From Flavobacteriaceae bacterium (GTDB lineage Bacteria > Bacteroidota > Bacteroidia > Flavobacteriales > Flavobacteriaceae), in the NCBI GenBank assembly GCA_014238425.1, contig JABABD010000020.1:145536-209535 (forward strand): a DNA stretch of 64,000 nucleotides, written 5' to 3'. The notes beneath the pieces are model-generated. The model was not told the DNA's origin, did no database searches, and worked only from the letters and a program-made list of their open reading frames with translations. The position numbers were made by a program, and so were the translations under genes. Shown here piece by piece: positions 2,360 through 31,439 of the stretch. How positions within the stretch are numbered: the first letter of the stretch is position 1; each line of letters begins with the position of its first letter.

Positions 2360-4258
2360 ATGAGCGATGCTTTAAAACATGAGTGTGGAATTGCACTTAT
2401 CAGGCTTTTAAAACCATTAGAATATTACAAAGAAAAATACGGAAGTGCATTTTATGGGGTAAATAAAATGTATCTCATGATGGAAAAGCAGCACAATCGT
2501 GGCCAGGATGGAGCTGGCTTTGCCAGTATAAAACTCAACACCGATCCAGGTGAACGATATATAAGTCGCGTAAGGTCTATCGCTCAACAACCAATTCAAG
2601 ATATCTTCGAGCAAATAAATGAACGCATCAATCAAGAAATTTTAGACCATCCTGAGTATAAAAATGATGTTGCTCTTCAAAAAAAGAACATTCCATACAT
2701 AGGCGAAGTACTGTTGGGGCATGTTAGGTATGGCACCTTCGGCAAAAATAGTGTTGAAAGTGTCCACCCTTTCTTAAGACAGAACAATTGGACGCACCGC
2801 AACCTTATATTAGCAGGTAACTTTAATATGACCAACGTTAAAGAGCTTTTTGCCAACTTGGTTGAATTAGGTCAACATCCAAAAGAATATACCGATACCA
2901 TTACAATTATGGAGAAGATAGGTCATTTCTTAGACGATGCAGTAAGTAAAATTTATAAAGACCTTAAGAAAGAAGGTTATAGTAAAATGGAATCTTCACC
3001 ATTGATTGAAGAACGAATAAAAGTTGCTAAGATCCTTAGGCGCTCCTCTAAAAATTGGGATGGCGGATACGCAATGGCAGGTATGCTTGGTCATGGTGAT
3101 TCTTTTGTTTTAAGAGACCCTGCTGGTATTCGGCCAGCATATTACTACAAAGATGATGAGGTCGTTGTTGTGGCGTCAGAACGCCCCGTCATACAAACCG
3201 TATTTAATGTAGACTATGATAAAGTGGAAGAACTTCCACCTGGAAATGCTATCATCATCAAAAAATCTGGTGAGACAAATATCAAGGAGATCTTGAAACC
3301 TCTTGAAAGAAAAGCTTGTTCTTTTGAGCGTATCTATTTCTCCCGTGGTAGTGATGCTGAGATTTATCAAGAACGGAAACATCTTGGTAAGTTATTAATG
3401 CCTAAAGTTCTTGAAGCTATTAATGAGGATACTAAGAATACTGTATTTTCATATATACCAAATACGGCTGAGACATCTTTTTTTGGCATGATAGAATCTG
3501 TTGAAGATTATTTAAACGAAAGGAAGACGCAAGGCATTATAGCTGGGAAAGGAAAATTGACAAAAGAGCAAGTCACCAATATCCTCTCTGAGCGTCCTAG
3601 GATAGAGAAAATCGCTATTAAAGATGTTAAATTAAGAACATTTATTACAGAAGATAGTAGCCGAGATGATCTTGTAGCTCACGTTTATGACGTTACATAT
3701 GGTGTTATCAAACCAACGGATAATTTGGTTATTATTGATGACAGTATCGTGCGTGGCACCACCTTGAAAAAAAGCATCATCAAGATGATGGATCGCCTTA
3801 ATGCTAAAAAAATTGTCGTTGTCTCATCTGCCCCGCAAATACGTTATCCTGATTGTTATGGAATTGATATGGCCCGTTTAGAAGGATTAGTGGCTTTTAG
3901 AGCAGCCTTATCGTTACTGCAAGATCAAGGTAAGTATCATATTGTAGAAGCTGTGTATAAAAAATGTAAAGCTCAGGAGCATCTTCGTGATTCCGAAGTT
4001 CAAAACTTTGTAAAGGAGATTTACGATACATTTACCGACGAACAAGTTTCTGATAAGATATCCGAATTACTAAGTGATGATAGTGTCAATGCTAAAGTGA
4101 AAATTATTTTTCAAACCGTTGAGAATCTTAATAAAGCTTGTCCAAAGAATTTAGGCGATTGGTATTTTACTGGTAACTACCCTACCGTTGGAGGTAACCG
4201 TGTGGTTAACAAGGCATTTATCAATTTTTACGAAGGTAAAAACGAGCGGGCTTACTAA
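2360..4258 (+). CDS. purF: Amidophosphoribosyltransferase-like class II glutamine amidotransferase (long Bacteroidota type)
   Basis: N-terminal MSDALKHECGIALI has the Ntn Cys right after Met. A PRTase-type motif VIIDDSIVRGTT is present. The 632 aa length is typical of the Bacteroidota PurF-like form. Confidence 0.65.
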   Translation: MSDALKHECGIALIRLLKPLEYYKEKYGSAFYGVNKMYLMMEKQHNRGQDGAGFASIKLNTDPGERYISRVRSIAQQPIQDIFEQINERINQEILDHPEYKNDVALQKKNIPYIGEVLLGHVRYGTFGKNSVESVHPFLRQNNWTHRNLILAGNFNMTNVKELFANLVELGQHPKEYTDTITIMEKIGHFLDDAVSKIYKDLKKEGYSKMESSPLIEERIKVAKILRRSSKNWDGGYAMAGMLGHGDSFVLRDPAGIRPAYYYKDDEVVVVASERPVIQTVFNVDYDKVEELPPGNAIIIKKSGETNIKEILKPLERKACSFERIYFSRGSDAEIYQERKHLGKLLMPKVLEAINEDTKNTVFSYIPNTAETSFFGMIESVEDYLNERKTQGIIAGKGKLTKEQVTNILSERPRIEKIAIKDVKLRTFITEDSSRDDLVAHVYDVTYGVIKPTDNLVIIDDSIVRGTTLKKSIIKMMDRLNAKKIVVVSSAPQIRYPDCYGIDMARLEGLVAFRAALSLLQDQGKYHIVEAVYKKCKAQEHLRDSEVQNFVKEIYDTFTDEQVSDKISELLSDDSVNAKVKIIFQTVENLNKACPKNLGDWYFTGNYPTVGGNRVVNKAFINFYEGKNERAY

Positions 4259-4369
4259 TGAAAAATTACGGTAAAACCGTATTTTGTCCAATAAATCAAC
4301 GGTTTATCTAAAAAAAATGCCGTTTATCTAAAACTTTGCCCACCTATGAGAGAAAGGTCTAATTTAGAC

Positions 4370-4444
4370 TCACCATAACATAAGTAGGTTAAGTTCATGG
4401 TAGATTTGGGGCAAAAAAAGGTGAACTCTCGTTCACCTTTTTTT
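4370..4444 (+). ncRNA. Candidate small RNA, copy A of a duplicated ~75-nt element
   Basis: Contains hairpin 1 (ACCATAAC/GTTcATGGT), a spacer GATTTGGGGCAAAAAAA and an intrinsic terminator GGTGAACTCTCGTTCACC plus T7. Upstream there is TTG ...21 nt... TAATTTAG, which matches the Bacteroidota -33/-7 consensus. Confidence 0.35.
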
Positions 4445-4618
4445 ATTTTTATTCCCAAAACATTTAACTTTCTGGCAATTAGCTCATTACTTAGACACTC
4501 TTCTGCAAAGCCTTTAAAAACTAGGTTTTTATCTTTTTGAAAACAACCTCTAAACCTAATTTATAAGTATTTTATCTAATAAATTCAATAAATTGAAAAA
4601 AGCACCGTTATATTTACA

Positions 4619-4691
4619 TCACCATAACATAAGTAGGTTAAGTTCATGGTAGATTTGGGGCAAAAAAGGTGAACTCTTGTTCACCTTTTTT
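4619..4691 (+). ncRNA. Candidate small RNA, copy B (2 differences from copy A)
   Basis: Near-identical to 4370-4444. It has its own upstream TATATTTA -7-like motif and ends in the same hairpin plus T-run terminator. Confidence 0.35.
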
Positions 4692-4778
4692 CATTTTCTG
4701 TCTTCAGTCAATTTCAAAACATCCTATATAAAATAGTTGGTTACAATAATAACTCGCTTGTATTATATATAATAAGCT

Positions 4779-5117
4779 TCACCTTGGGTCTTCCCAAACA
4801 GTTTCAATAAAAATAGCCGCAATCCAATTTTGACAATCATTGTTTGGGCCATCAATGCCACCGATAACACAAATGGTTTGACAATCTACTGTCATTACAG
4901 ATGATTGTCCATCAGGAAAGTTTTGAAAATTAACCAAGAATACTTCTTCATTCTCATATATATATTTTTGAATATTAGCTTTAGGAGATTGAACCGGGTC
5001 TTCTAGCACTGCCTCAATTCTATCTTGGAGGCATTGCGAGTACATAGAATCTTCATCATCAGAATTACAAGAAATACTGCTAGTTATTAAAACGCATATA
5101 AAAATCAATTTTCTCAT
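4779..5117 (-). CDS. Hypothetical small lipoprotein
   Basis: The internal start MRKLIFICVLITSSISC gives a lipoprotein signal with a lipobox Cys. I recognised no conserved domain. Confidence 0.4.
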   Translation of the reverse strand: MRKLIFICVLITSSISCNSDDEDSMYSQCLQDRIEAVLEDPVQSPKANIQKYIYENEEVFLVNFQNFPDGQSSVMTVDCQTICVIGGIDGPNNDCQNWIAAIFIETVWEDPR

Positions 5118-5228
5118 GTTCTCTTTATAATTAGATGCCTCATTTCTTTCTTGGTTGCGTGAATTTGGGGGCAAAATAAAAAAGCCAGCAAAATTGCTGG
5201 CTTCATTTATTTACATAAAGTTAAAAAT

Positions 5229-5837
5229 CTATTTAGCTTCTGCGTAACGTCTTTCTACTTCGTTCCAATTAATCACACTAAAGAATGCCTCAATATAATC
5301 TGGGCGTCTGTTTTGGTAATTTAAATAATACGCATGTTCCCAAACATCCAATCCAAGGATTGGTGTCCCGCCACAAGTTACTCCTGGCATTAATGGATTA
5401 TCCTGATTTGGTGTAGAACACACTTCGACTTTTCCTCCTTTGTGCACACATAACCAAGCCCATCCAGAACCAAATTGTGTTGCAGCAGCTTTACTGAAAA
5501 CATCTTTAAAAGCATCGAAAGATCCGTAAGTATCTTCAATGGCATCTTTTAATTCTCCAGAAAGCCTACCTCTATCCTCTGGATTCATAACTTCCCAGAA
5601 AAGTGAATGATTATAAAAGCCACCGCCATTATTTCTAACGCCTTTATTATTCATATCCAAACCATTTAATATAGTTTCAATAGATTGCCCTTCTAGCTTT
5701 GTTCCTTCAATCGCTGCGTTCAATTTAGTAGTATAACCATTATGATGTTTAGAGTGATGTATTTCCATCGTTCGAGCATCAATATGAGGCTCTAGTGCGT
5801 CGTATGCATATTTTAATTTTGGTAATTCGAAAGCCAT
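5229..5837 (-). CDS. sodA: Fe/Mn superoxide dismutase
   Basis: [32 protein letters not shown] and the C-terminal DVWEHAYY are classic SOD motifs. Confidence 0.9.
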
Positions 5838-29283: not shown

Positions 29284-29355
29284 GATATTGTAGTTCAATG
29301 GTAGAGCAAGTAGTTGTTAACTACAAGGTTGAAAGTTCGAGTTTTTCCAATATCG
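29284..29355 (+). tRNA. tRNA-Asn (GTT)
   Basis: GATATTG|TA|GTTC AATGGTA GAGC|A|AGTAG TTGTTAA CTACA|AGGTT|GAAAG TTCGAGT TTTTC|CAATATC|G. Confidence 0.8.
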
Positions 29356-29364
29356 CAATTAACT

Positions 29365-29445
29365 GGAAGTGTTGAGCAATTGGTTGGCTCGCCTGACTGT
29401 AAATCAGGTCTTAACGGCATGTAGGTTCGAGCCCTACCTCTTCCA
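29365..29445 (+). tRNA. tRNA-Tyr (GTA), long variable arm
   Basis: GGAAGTG..GAGC..GCTC|CCTGA CTGTAAA TCAGG|12-nt variable|GTAGG TTCGAGC CCTAC|CTCTTCC|A. Confidence 0.75.
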
Positions 29446-29450
29446 CAAAC

Positions 29451-29522
29451 GCGTCTATGGTGTAAAGGATAGCACAAGAGATTTCTAATCTCTAAGTCTA
29501 AGTTCGAATCTTAGTAGATATA
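29451..29522 (+). tRNA. tRNA-Arg (TCT)
   Basis: D arm GTGT AAAGGATA GCAC; anticodon arm AGAGA TTTCTAA TCTCT; T arm CTAAG TTCGAAT CTTAG. The acceptor stem has 1 mismatch and 2 wobbles. Confidence 0.65.
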
Positions 29523-29528
29523 CTTTAT

Positions 29529-29600
29529 GGTTCATTGGGGTAATGGCTATCCTTCCCGACTGTCTCTCGGGAGATACGAGTTCGATTCTCGTATGAACCG
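29529..29600 (+). tRNA. tRNA-Asp (GTC)
   Basis: GGTTCAT...CCCGA CTGTCTC TCGGG...ACGAG TTCGATT CTCGT|ATGAACC|G. Confidence 0.75.
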
Positions 29601-29607
29601 CAAAACA

Positions 29608-29694
29608 GGAAGGGCAATCAGATAGGTGACTGAAGCAATCTTGAAAATTGTCGAGCTTTAAAAGGCCTTGTGGGTTCGATTCCCACTCCTTCCG
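29608..29694 (+). tRNA. tRNA-Ser (TGA), class II (about 87 nt)
   Basis: GGAAGGG...anticodon arm GCAAT CTTGAAA ATTGT...T arm GTGGG TTCGATT CCCAC|TCCTTCC|G. The D-arm and variable-arm geometry are not fully canonical. Confidence 0.6.
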
Positions 29695-29700
29695 CAAAAC

Positions 29701-29786
29701 TGAGAGTAGGCAAATATTGGTTTGTTACGCTCACCTGCTAAGTGAGTTTGCCTTTTGGCAATGAAGGTTCAATTCCTTTGCTCTCC
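29701..29786 (+). tRNA. tRNA-Ser (GCT), class II
   Basis: GAGAGTA...CTCAC CTGCTAA GTGAG|variable hairpin TTGCC TTTT GGCAA|AAGG TTCAATT CCTT|TGCTCTC. Confidence 0.65.
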
Positions 29787-29793
29787 GCATAAT

Positions 29794-29866
29794 GCTCTAT
29801 TAGCATAGTGGTTTAGTGCACCTGACTTTCTATCAGGAGACAAGGGTTCGATTCCCTTATAGAGTT
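29794..29866 (+). tRNA. tRNA-Glu (TTC)
   Basis: GCTCTAT|TA|GCAT AGTGGTTTA GTGC|A|CCTGA CTTTCTA TCAGG|AGAC|AAGGG TTCGATT CCCTT|ATAGAGT|T. Confidence 0.8.
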
Positions 29867-29872
29867 CAAAAT

Positions 29873-29944
29873 TGAGGCATAGCTCAGCGGAAGAGTGTCA
29901 CTCTGATAAGGTGATAAGTTTAGGTTCGATTCCTAATGTCTCAA
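29873..29944 (+). tRNA. tRNA-Ile (GAT)
   Basis: TGAGGCA|TA|GCTC..GAGT|G|TCACT CTGATAA GGTGA|TAAGT|TTAGG TTCGATT CCTAA|TGTCTCA|A. First pair is U1-A72. Confidence 0.7.
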
Positions 29945-29954
29945 CTAAATATAA

Positions 29955-30028
29955 TGAGATGTAGCTTAATCCGGCAGAGCATCGCTCTCATAAAGCGAAA
30001 GGTCTAGGTTCGACTCCTAGCATCTTAA
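29955..30028 (+). tRNA. tRNA-Met (CAT), elongator or Ile2-lysidine type (not an initiator)
   Basis: TGAGATG|TA|GCTT AATCCGGCA GAGC|A|TCGCT CTCATAA AGCGA|AAGGT|CTAGG TTCGACT CCTAG|CATCTTA|A. Confidence 0.7.
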
Positions 30029-30033
30029 CAAAC

Positions 30034-30106
30034 GCAGGAATGGCGAAATGGTAAACGCGCTTGGCTTAGACCCAAGAGACTGAGAGTTCGAATCTCTCTT
30101 CCTGTA
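30034..30106 (+). tRNA. tRNA with Leu anticodon TAG but a class-I (short variable arm, 73 nt) structure
   Basis: GCAGGAA|TG|GCGA..ACGC|G|CTTGG CTTAGAC CCAAG|AGACT|GAGAG TTCGAAT CTCTC|TTCCTGT|A. Confidence 0.55.
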
Positions 30107-30112
30107 CTAAAT

Positions 30113-30186
30113 ACTCCACTAGCCCAAACGGAAGAGGCAATAGTTTTAAACGCTGTAAAGTCCAAGTTCGAATCTTGGGTGGAGTA
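30113..30186 (+). tRNA. tRNA-like gene with perfect acceptor and T arms but an unpaired anticodon arm (isotype undetermined; possible pseudo-tRNA)
   Basis: ACTCCAC...CCAAG TTCGAAT CTTGG|GTGGAGT|A. The anticodon region ATAGTTTTAAACGCTGT cannot form a 5-bp stem. Confidence 0.4.
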
Positions 30187-30192
30187 CAAAAT

Positions 30193-30264
30193 AAGCTTAT
30201 GGTGTAACGGATAGCACACAAGGCTACGAACCTTGGAGTATGAGTTCGAATCTTTTTAGGCTTA
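30193..30264 (+). tRNA. tRNA-Arg (ACG)
   Basis: AAGCTTA|TG|GTGT AACGGATA GCAC|A|CAAGG CTACGAA CCTTG|GAGT|ATGAG TTCGAAT CTTTT|TAGGCTT|A. The T stem is weak. Confidence 0.65.
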
Positions 30265-30270
30265 CGACAA

Positions 30271-30341
30271 TAACCTGTGGTGTAATGGTAGCATTCAAGA
30301 CTTTGAATCTTGAGGTAATGGTTCAAATCCATTCAGGTTAT
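30271..30341 (+). tRNA. tRNA-Gln (TTG)
   Basis: TAACCTG|TG|GTGT AATGGTA GCAT|T|CAAGA CTTTGAA TCTTG|AGGT|AATGG TTCAAAT CCATT|CAGGTTA|T. U1-A72 as in enterobacterial tRNA-Gln. Confidence 0.75.
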
Positions 30342-30343
30342 CT

Positions 30344-30416
30344 GGTGTCTATAGTGTAACTGCTCGCACGAGAGATTGTGGTTCTCTAGGATCAAGTTCG
30401 ACCCTTGATAGACACC
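30344..30416 (+). tRNA. tRNA-His (GTG) with encoded G-1
   Basis: G|GTGTCTA...AGAGA TTGTGGT TCTCT|AGGA|TCAAG TTCGACC CTTGA|TAGACAC|C. The 8-bp acceptor stem has G-1:C73. Confidence 0.8.
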
Positions 30417-30421
30417 CAAAC

Positions 30422-30494
30422 GGAACAGTAGCAAAGTTGGTCAATGCACCAGATTGAAGCTCTGGCGATACAGGTTCAATTCCTGTCTGTTTCA
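30422..30494 (+). tRNA. tRNA-Phe (GAA)
   Basis: GGAACAG|TA|GCA..TGC|A|CCAGA TTGAAGC TCTGG|CGATA|ACAGG TTCAATT CCTGT|CTGTTTC|A. Confidence 0.8.
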
Positions 30495-31439
30495 CTAATA
30501 CCTCTTTAGCTTAAAAGGAAGAGCTGTGGTAAAAGACTTTGGATCGTAGCCATGGAGTGATTGGAAGATGTTGTTAGCAACGCGCTTGCTAATGAATAGA
30601 ATTTGCAGAAGCACTGAAAACTGACAAGAACACGAGTAGGGAAGCGCATTTAGAGCCAATCTGTTCGCATCAGCGAAAGTATCAGTTCGAATCTGATAAG
30701 AGGTGCAAAATATTACAATATCAAGCTGGTCTTGTTGGGTGTTTCGGTATAGCACTATTGTATAAAGCATTGCAGGGATGCATTATGGTTTTATGTACAA
30801 CTAGACTTGAAGGTTTTGATTGTTAACCAAAAAACAATTACCAGTTCTATGGACATGGGTTCGATTCCCATTCTCATTTATTTGAGATAACTCAGTGGCT
30901 AGAGTAATAGATCAATGTTGCCGGTTCGAGTCCGGTCAAGATTTCAGAATCTTGTAACTCAATTGGTAGAGTGCTACACTTTTAACGTAGAGAAGGGATT
31001 TAGGAGATCCACCAAAGCTTATCATCTTGTAAAACTGATAGCTATGCAGTTGGTCACACTGCTCTAAAAAAAATGACAAAACAGTGGATTGCAAATCGGC
31101 TTTAATATCAATTAATTATTAGTGTTCGATATAAAAGCAATCTAGAGCGTACTTGACATATTGGTTTTCATTTGCTAGAGATAGTAACTGTTTTTTGTTC
31201 AGAAGAGAGATAAGCACCATTTAGTTGGTGTAAATCTCAAATCCCAACATTAAACATGAGCTGTTGAAGCTTTTGATACGAATATGTCCGTACAGGAAAG
31301 ATGATTTGTAATCTGCTGTTTTTATTTAAAAAAGAAACTAAAATATACTTCGAGAATCAATGAACTCGTCATTGCGGATTGAAGTCGGTAAGCCTTCCGT
31401 TACAGGAATTGCCACAACGCTCATAATGGGCAACAACAA
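30495..31439 (+). other. Gene-free ~950 bp field of tRNA-like fragments (degraded continuation of the array?)
   Basis: Isolated T-arm-like units TATCAG TTCGAAT CTGATA (30679-30697), CATGGG TTCGATT CCCAT (30855-30872), CCGG TTCGAGT CCGG (30921-30935). A D/anticodon-arm-like TAACTCAATTGGTAGAGTG CTACA CTTTTAA CGTAG (30954-30990, Lys TTT-like). No ORF of 60 aa or more with support. Confidence 0.4.

Follow-up and report, generated by a model that had tools for sequence, protein, structure and literature searches.

What are the two near-identical units of about 72 nt that lie side by side between purF and a lipoprotein gene in a Flavobacteriaceae bacterium (assembly GCA_014238425.1, contig JABABD010000020.1)? 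They are found in a stretch of 64,000 nt (positions 145,536 to 209,535 of the forward strand; referred to here as the window, with positions numbered from its first base), and the original prediction, made from the letters of the window, saw in them a pair of small RNAs (sRNAs), each with its own promoter and intrinsic terminator. The analysis described here leads to the conclusion that the units are, very probably, tandem paralogous sRNA genes of about 72 nt belonging to the Rfp13/Rfp15 family of the Flavobacteriaceae, a conclusion drawn from alignment and synteny.

Both units are on the + strand, copy 1 at nt 4372–4444 and copy 2 at nt 4621–4691, and they share a block of 49 nt that is 100% identical (4370–4418 and 4619–4667). 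The similarity has an abrupt left edge at TCACCATAAC, directly 3′ of a −7-like box, and extends beyond the terminator to about nt 4449 and nt 4697, respectively. A 42 nt core occurs twice in the window and not once in 100 dinucleotide shuffles. The presence of two near-identical copies is confirmed. The differences that had been described between them, an A indel and a substitution in the terminator loop, were also seen (an A-run of 7 versus 6 and a loop of TCTC versus TCTT), along with a further base difference after the T-run.

In minimum free energy (MFE) folds, each of the two units has a hairpin at its 5′ end, followed by a G-rich linker and then an intrinsic terminator (−23.2 and −22.8 kcal/mol, z-scores −4.6 and −4.4), and both terminators were called on the + strand by a terminator scan. 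Hairpin 1, the linker, the terminator stem-loop and the U-run occupy nt 4372–4401, 4402–4419 (AGAUUUGGGGCAAAAAAA), 4420–4437 and 4438–4444 of copy 1, and nt 4621–4650, 4651–4667, 4668–4685 and 4686–4691 of copy 2. The predicted succession of hairpin, linker and terminator therefore stands (z of about −4.5), while the idea of a fully single-stranded linker does not, as its A-run is predicted to pair with the U-tail.

The same layout is given by the dot-bracket structure of Rfp13 (Table S8 of PMC9723704), one of 85 new RNAs of Flavobacterium psychrophilum OSU THCO2-90 reported in the supplementary tables of Guérin et al. 2021 (ISME Commun 1:33; PMC9723704). Rfp13 (THC0290_N_0129) is a 73 nt RNA encoded on the minus strand at 208062–208134, convergent with sodA, and its sequence is CCAUUACAUAAGUAGGUUAAGUUAUGGUAGAUUUGGGGCAAAAAAGGCGGAAC...UUUUUU (Table S8). 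Its transcription start site (TSS) was mapped to 208135 (7237 reads, class SM2/SigA), the transcript beginning at the A before CCAU and the promoter sequence ending in ...TTACTTTTACATAACCAT (Table S2 of PMC9723704). When aligned, the window copies are identical to Rfp13 at 45 of 47 positions in the 5′ part and have the same linker and A-run, while the sequence of the terminator stem differs.

A second RNA of F. psychrophilum, Rfp15, is an independent transcript of 66 nt that starts 89 nt after purF (PMC9723704). It retains CCAUUACA..GUAGGUUAAGUU, lacks the GGGG linker and is, as judged by the alignment, a diverged paralog of Rfp13. Rfp13/Rfp15 agree with the window units in architecture, including the AGAUUUGGGGCAAAAAA linker, and, as predicted from the sequence, in promoter type and in the start at the A before CCAU; their neighbours are alike, Rfp13 being next to sodA and Rfp15 following purF. 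In the window, as in most of the family, the copies stand next to each other in one array, whereas in F. psychrophilum they are split about 43 kb apart; an ancestral purF-[sRNA]n-sodA array appears to have been divided between two copies in this species. The orthology to Rfp13, with its mapped TSS and SigA promoter, supports the view that the window units are an independently transcribed sRNA pair.

Since Rfp13 and Rfp15 are on record from transcriptomics, the sRNA family itself is not new. Table S9 of the same study already names several Flavobacterium species, Cellulophaga and Zobellia as having homologs of Rfp13, and its main text describes Rfp11, 13, 15 and 18 as conserved in other species and strongly structured, of which Rfp18 alone was studied (PMC9723704). 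In the literature library searched, nothing on Rfp13 or on iron-responsive sRNAs of Flavobacterium was found beyond these supplementary tables. To them the present analysis adds the purF-[sRNA]1-5-sodA synteny seen across the family, the amplification in tandem, the upstream repeats with their phasing and a working covariance model.

Expression data are available for Rfp13, which is annotated as 'induced under iron depletion' (Table S8 of PMC9723704). Compared with exponential growth, its limma log fold change (logFC) was 5.68 in the transition phase and 7.09 in the stationary phase (50- to 130-fold); the values for dipyridyl and plasma were 2.38 (about 5-fold) and −1.27. Array signals (log2) spanned 8.9–17.1 for Rfp13 and 12.6–14.2 for sodA (PMC9723704).

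How widespread is the element, and is it confined to one place in the genome? Homologs were collected by scanning one genome per species (GTDB representatives) for the exact 21-mer YATGGTAGATTTGGGRCARAA, which gave at least 120 stretches; the family-wide figures below hold among the matches listed. Practically all matches are from Flavobacteriaceae, including Flavobacterium, Aquimarina, Kordia, Winogradskyella, Gillisia, Salegentibacter, Leeuwenhoekiella, Aequorivita and other genera, apart from two contigs that are labelled otherwise. These two, from metagenome-assembled genomes (MAGs) labelled Pseudanabaena (L090) and Porticoccaceae (L110), carry a flavobacterial-type purF with 72–74% identity to the window protein, followed by the sRNA, and are probably mis-binned Flavobacterium contigs in public MAGs. 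Each genome has one stretch, the single exception being a MAG in which the array is split over two contig ends, and the two complete chromosomes in the set have one locus each. Five relatives that were fetched by way of their purF proteins (85–93% identity) all carry the element just past purF, in 1, 2 or 3 tandem copies, with the 5′ 46 nt identical or nearly so and terminator stems that differ by compensatory changes.

The covariance model recognised 225 copies with scores of at least 47.9 bits, compared to noise of no more than 33.8 bits. In the 124 loci, which include the window, the number of copies was one (47 loci), two (59), three (11), four (6) or five (1 locus). Copies within a locus are all on the same strand, with a median start-to-start spacing of 204 nt. 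Searches with the window proteins (tblastn) showed that, in most of the 124 loci, the first copy starts 82–135 nt past a purF of the same orientation. Beyond the last copy there is usually a convergent sodA, generally within about 20–300 nt, and in 88 of 123 loci neither gene is more than 1.5 kb away from the array. Terminators of the same genome resemble each other more closely than those of different genomes do (mean similarity 0.79 versus 0.68; identical pairs 13% versus 0.8%), indicating recent duplication or gene conversion. The third copy of Flavobacterium aquidurense (L025, 3839–3906) has an intact 5′ 47 nt and no recognisable terminator hairpin after the A-run, and may be a decaying or read-through copy.

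These results bear on an explanation that had been named beforehand as a refutation of the sRNA interpretation, namely that the element is a multi-copy intergenic repeat of the REP/MITE type scattered through the genome. The unit does contain a palindromic stem, and two independent short-read assemblies of the window's organism break inside the repeat, both within copy 1 (scaffold_4 ends at nt 4423 and scaffold_5 starts at about nt 4373). Such breaks are, however, expected because the repeat is a local tandem one, and this also explains the recurrent break point at purF. When the covariance model was run without filters over the whole 64 kb, it returned copy 2 (97.7 bits), copy 1 (92.8 bits) and no third copy; the next-best match, at 22.9 bits, was to a terminator alone. 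Across at least 120 species there is one stretch per genome, including the two complete chromosomes with a single locus, its orientation and syntenic position are constant, and neither terminal inverted repeats nor target-site duplications accompany it. No matches to the element were found in plasmid and phage collections, and the single match in IMG/VR was a chance match inside an unrelated sequence. With one syntenic locus per genome and all copies on one strand among the matches listed, a dispersed repeat can be ruled out for practical purposes.

To assess conservation of the RNA, base pairs were counted in two alignments, one made with MAFFT from 121 distinct sequences and the other based on the model, with 121 matches. 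All seven pairs of the terminator helix covary and are 91–99% paired. Hairpin 1 is 94–96% paired and mostly invariant; a change from A-U to G-U is frequent at one position, and true compensatory changes are few (CG>UA, AU>GC). The covariation anticipated for hairpin 1 was thus seen in part, the helix being maintained with rare compensatory changes that come from very few sequences. The innermost 3 bp helix of its MFE fold is not kept in the homologs, where AUAAG and AUUAG alternate opposite an invariant partner, and therefore the loop is about 13 nt long, with GUAGGUUA invariant. About 45 nt are near-invariant across the family, with the qualification that positions 26–47 of the RNA are contained in the search pattern, so that invariance there is partly imposed by the collection; the loop and the 5′ stem, which lie outside the pattern, are still at least 90% conserved.

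A search of the window with Rfam 15 at gathering thresholds returned tRNAs only, and no family was assigned to the element; Rfp13 and Rfp15 are likewise absent from Rfam. Families scoring below threshold include FopS (RF04319), BTnc231, GibS, RyhB and Flavo-1, and the sub-threshold matches on the element itself are driven by the terminator (BTnc231, 31.8 versus 80.4, on the minus strand; FopS, 21.3 versus 56).

Could the conserved sequence encode a small protein? The ATG in ...UUCAUGGUAGAUUUGGGGCAAAAAA and the six codons that follow it (MVDLGQK) are conserved, and in copy 1 they would begin an open reading frame of 47 aa (nt 4397–4540). In copy 2, however, the shorter A-run leads to MVDLGQKR and then a stop codon. 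The A-run of the homologs has between 4 and 7 residues, and a 1 nt insertion (AUGGUAAGAUUU) is present in several species; both shift the frame, and none of the reading frames is conserved. Invariance extends to synonymous positions, the ATG is part of a hairpin stem and there is no Pfam match. The small-protein reading was rejected on the lack of a conserved frame, its probability being very slight, and the same frame-shifting variation supports the view that selection acts at the level of the RNA.

A further possibility is that the units are cis elements, i.e., duplicated and possibly bidirectional terminators or 3′ UTR modules of purF, the lipoprotein gene and sodA, with the short RNA as a by-product. 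The symmetric arrangement of A-run, GC stem and T-run would allow termination from both directions, copy 1 is situated 114 nt after purF, whose own hairpin is weak, and in some relatives the end of sodA is only 22–28 nt from the last copy. In F. psychrophilum, a transcribed segment classed as 'intra' joins purF to Rfp15 (PMC9723704). This explanation nevertheless leaves unaccounted for the invariant 45 nt of the 5′ part, the promoter box before every copy and the arrays of up to five, and it is the terminator stems that vary freely while the 5′ part does not. Rfp13, moreover, is located apart from purF, has a strong TSS of its own and varies about 300-fold independently of a flat sodA (PMC9723704). 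We regard a purely cis-acting role as improbable.

When the sequences preceding 189 copies are aligned at the CCAU start, they show the consensus TA.aTTtG at −13 to −6 of the CCAT start, which matches the SigA motif TAnnTTTG of PMC9723704 and is positioned as expected for a TSS at the A before CCAU. Further upstream are a weak T-rich −33 region and a pair of conserved blocks with a distance of 20 nt between them (−51 to −42 and −71 to −63) and the consensus (T)GC(A/C)TTT(C/A)ATC(T/G)AAAA. The 7-mers TTTCATC, TCATCTA and TCTAAAA are enriched at fixed upstream positions, and most copies carry two upstream direct repeats, at about −50 and about −70.

In the window, the −7 box of copy 1 (TAATTTAG, nt 4360–4367, +) agrees with the family consensus, and a TTTG (4335–4338) lies 21 nt upstream of it. 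The direct repeats of this copy, CGGTTTATCTAAAA (4300–4313) and CCGTTTATCTAAAA (4320–4333), both on the + strand, are exactly 20 nt apart, at about −70 and −50, and represent a candidate regulator-binding site. Copy 2 has its −7 box (TATATTTA, nt 4609–4616, +) at the family consensus position and an upstream repeat (GTATTTTATCTAATAA, nt 4567–4582, +) at about −50, while its −70 repeat is degenerate. At the level of the sequence, the −7 box proposed for each copy is thus where the family consensus places it; the upstream TTG of copy 2 is only 13 nt from its −7 box, a non-canonical spacing.

The placing of the direct repeats at −50 and −70 suggests a site for an activator rather than the operator of a repressor. 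A Fur box overlapping the core promoter was not found; the conserved sites are the repeats (−74 to −63 and −54 to −40), and nothing is conserved between the −33 and −7 regions. The repeats were also considered as Fur boxes themselves and this reading was rejected, as they share just the half-site TCTAAA with the predicted Fur box of Riemerella (ATTTAGAATTATTCTAAAT). Because the repeats sit at activator positions and the match is limited to a half-site, direct control by Fur is unsupported. A position weight matrix scan of the window for the upstream repeat carried too little information for defining a regulon.

A second paralog class is present in Flavobacterium species, with the form CAAACAGG...CCUGUUUAUUUUUU terminator (L053, 7811–7884; L122, 3290–3363; L092, 565–638; L095, 290–363; L035, 5591–5664; L083, 1256–1326; L087, 536–608). 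Its members have the box CAT(C/T)CCAATATATTT at about −60 in place of the TTTATCTAA-type repeats, and this different upstream box suggests that array copies are regulated differently, integrating different signals.

What, then, would the RNA do? The explanation that best covers the whole, and which we consider probable, is that these are Rfp13-family genes with their own promoters, boosted by a regulator, whose product acts in trans and whose copies provide dosage. By homology, each copy would have a sigma-A-type promoter of its own (TAnnTTTG −7 box), with the A before CCAUAAC as the first transcribed base, and would end at its own intrinsic terminator. A DNA-binding regulator that recognises the two direct repeats (at about −50 and −70, with 20 nt between them) probably boosts transcription, and the RNA may be expected to accumulate at growth arrest and under iron scarcity, as Rfp13 does in F. 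psychrophilum. It would then act in trans, most likely by base-pairing through the invariant unpaired loop AAGUAGGUUAAG and the linker AGAUUUGGGGC, and the 1–5-fold tandem amplification would serve dosage. We infer from this that the RNA is a trans-acting, dosage-amplified riboregulator of starvation and iron limitation. For base-pairing as the mode of action, taken by itself, the chances are about even.

Copy 1 probably also terminates purF transcription, giving the layout of a 3′ UTR-type sRNA with an internal promoter. This is suggested by its position close behind purF, where the only other candidate is a 6 bp hairpin, and by the 'intra' segment of F. psychrophilum. The hairpin in question (TACGGTAAAACCGTA followed by TTTTG, nt 4267–4281, +) was picked up by the terminator-like scan just after the purF stop codon and may be a leaky purF terminator.

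Several results weigh against this explanation or parts of it, beginning with the collection effect on positions 26–47, the few sequences that carry the covariation of hairpin 1 and the lack of support for direct Fur control. Complements of the sRNA seeds (9–10 nt) are not enriched in the 64 kb window. Full-length duplex energies with local genes are unremarkable and noisy, the 5′ region of the DUF6970 lipoprotein gene reaching −22.0 kcal/mol, about 1.3 standard deviations below the mean. Across about 90 species, the start regions of purF, pfkB and uvrD show no conserved pairing and are near shuffled controls, and in the same species comparison codons 5–10 of sodA pair with GGUAGAUUUGG of the sRNA in Flavobacterium species only. 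The published CopraRNA target list for Rfp13 has no clear functional or iron theme (PMC9723704). Finally, near-invariance over 45 nt exceeds what pairing through a seed alone needs, and could point to protein binding.

The sodA site can be described more closely. The coding sequence GAATTACCAAA(A/T)TTACC is complementary to GGUAGAUUUGG in L098, L018, L058, L126 and other Flavobacterium loci, with at most 11 contiguous pairs, in L098. In marine genera the sodA codons read ...AAATTAAAA, without the second half of the site, and this absence means that the pairing is not family-wide.

A rival explanation is that the RNA mainly binds and titrates a protein and does not pair with mRNAs, as a decoy of the CsrB/6S type in which the loop and G-rich linker would be recognition sites and the tandem copies would supply the high stoichiometry. 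About 45 nt, including the 13 nt loop, are near-invariant across the family, gene copies reach five, and neither the duplex and seed searches in the window nor the published CopraRNA list gave convincing mRNA targets. In stationary phase Rfp13 is at the top of the microarray range (log2 of about 17; PMC9723704). On the other hand, a single RNA does not contain protein-binding motifs in several repeats, as CsrB/RsmZ do, and about 72 nt with a 5′ hairpin, an unpaired stretch and a terminator is the typical layout of a base-pairing sRNA. Protein titration is rather unlikely in our judgement, and it stays the main rival to a base-pairing riboregulator because of the extreme conservation and abundance.

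Three known sRNA systems invite comparison with the Rfp13-family riboregulator proposed here. PrrF1/PrrF2 of Pseudomonas aeruginosa and RyhB of enterobacteria are reportedly iron-sparing sRNAs, as described by Wilderman et al. in 2004 and by Massé and Gottesman in 2002. PrrF1 and PrrF2 are likewise two near-identical sRNA genes in tandem with a short gap between them, and each has a promoter and a terminator of its own. Induction of Rfp13 by iron chelation and the location near a superoxide dismutase gene are further points of likeness with RyhB/PrrF, and mRNAs of superoxide dismutases are classic RyhB/PrrF targets. There is, however, no sequence or Rfam relationship to these RNAs (RyhB, 19.8 bits, on another site, versus a gathering threshold of 55), no Fur box lies over the promoter, where direct repeats at −50/−70 are found instead, and the induction of Rfp13 at growth arrest (logFC 5.7–7.1) is far above that by dipyridyl (2.4). 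The Bacteroidota, moreover, are not known to have Hfq.

From the same phylum, FopS/GibS of Bacteroides thetaiotaomicron (RF04319) are paralogous multicopy sRNAs of about 65–70 nt with sigma-A-type promoters; as here, the 5′ region is conserved and the terminator variable, and the copies of FopS have been proposed to serve dosage (PMC11697453). They are not homologous to the window RNA (21.3 and 18.2 bits versus a gathering threshold of 56). The 12–15 copies of FopS are dispersed and also occur in a phage, whereas the Rfp13 family forms one tandem array in a syntenic position and gave no matches in the phage and plasmid collections, and the FopS seed is at the extreme 5′ end, which in the window RNA is inside a hairpin.

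Type I sRNAs, reportedly described by Miyakoshi, Chao and Vogel in 2015, are embedded in 3′ UTRs and have an internal promoter, e.g., DapZ and MicL. Copy 1 is similar in that it directly follows a coding gene of the same orientation, has a predicted promoter of its own and probably uses one terminator in common with the purF mRNA. It differs in that the promoter comes after the purF stop codon and not within the coding sequence, further tandem copies follow, and the canonical copy of F. psychrophilum functions away from purF.

The genes around the array in the window are as follows. The purF-like amidophosphoribosyltransferase gene (nt 2360–4258, +) has Pfam domains GATase_6/7 and homologs so named, and copy 1 starts 114 nt past it. 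Its protein shares about 85% identity with the proteins of Lacinutrix, Confluentibacter and Wocania, which places the organism within the Flavobacteriaceae as an uncultured flavobacterium of marine type. Convergent with the sRNAs is a DUF6970 lipoprotein gene (nt 4779–5117, −; Pfam DUF6970) with a signal-peptide-like N-terminus (MRKLIFICVLITSSISC); a TTG start was dropped in favour of the ATG at nt 5117 as the true start. The next gene is sodA (nt 5229–5837, −), encoding an Fe/Mn superoxide dismutase (Pfam Sod_Fe_N and Sod_Fe_C, and synteny), which in the window is two genes away from the array. No DUF6970 homolog was found by tblastn beside the sRNA array in the other loci examined, and the DUF6970 gene is, on this comparison of loci, a lineage-specific insertion between the array and sodA.

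Beside the sodA terminator, the sequence TTGGGGGCAAAATAAAAAAGCCAGCAAAATTGCTGG (nt 5165–5204) resembles the linker and terminator of the sRNA, at a statistical level no better than chance. A third copy at nt 5165–5179 (TTGGGGGCAAAATAA plus the sodA terminator) was considered and rejected: a 14-mer with up to two mismatches gave 3 matches against 0.96 expected, which is chance level, and an indel is needed. On the minus strand, nt 5165–5204 form the putative 5′ region of the lipoprotein mRNA and are partly complementary to the sRNA linker.

Elsewhere in the window, 15 tRNA genes form an array at nt 29284–30495 (+) with spacings of just 2–10 nt, in the order Asn, Tyr, Arg-tct, Asp, Ser-tga, Ser-gct, Glu, Ile, Met, Leu-tag, Leu-taa, Arg-acg, Gln, His, Phe. 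Both tRNA-Leu calls in this array are 74–75 nt long, without the long variable arm that is normal for bacterial tRNA-Leu.

The Flavobacteriaceae are major degraders of organic matter in marine and freshwater habitats, and the family includes fish pathogens. Post-transcriptional control in the Bacteroidota is poorly understood, and outside the gut Bacteroides almost nothing is known of it. In F. psychrophilum, Rfp13 is among the most abundant transcripts of the stationary phase (PMC9723704). With about 45 nt practically invariant, high abundance, up to five-fold tandem copies and a locus locked between purF and sodA, the RNA is a strong candidate for a core role in regulating the passage from growth to starvation. 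That the Rfp13 family is the main starvation and iron-limitation riboregulator of the Flavobacteriaceae, and so does the work of RyhB/PrrF in a phylum not known to have Hfq, is a more tentative proposition, possible but doubtful at present. The RNA merits an Rfam entry and a knockout study, and for genome annotation the covariance model already parts true copies (at least 47.9 bits) from noise (at most 33.8 bits). If the riboregulator interpretation is true, a purF-[sRNA]n-sodA cassette would have been kept for hundreds of millions of years and tandem-amplified for dosage, with an activator on direct repeats 20 nt apart and two invariant unpaired motifs that would act on a conserved regulon or a protein partner.

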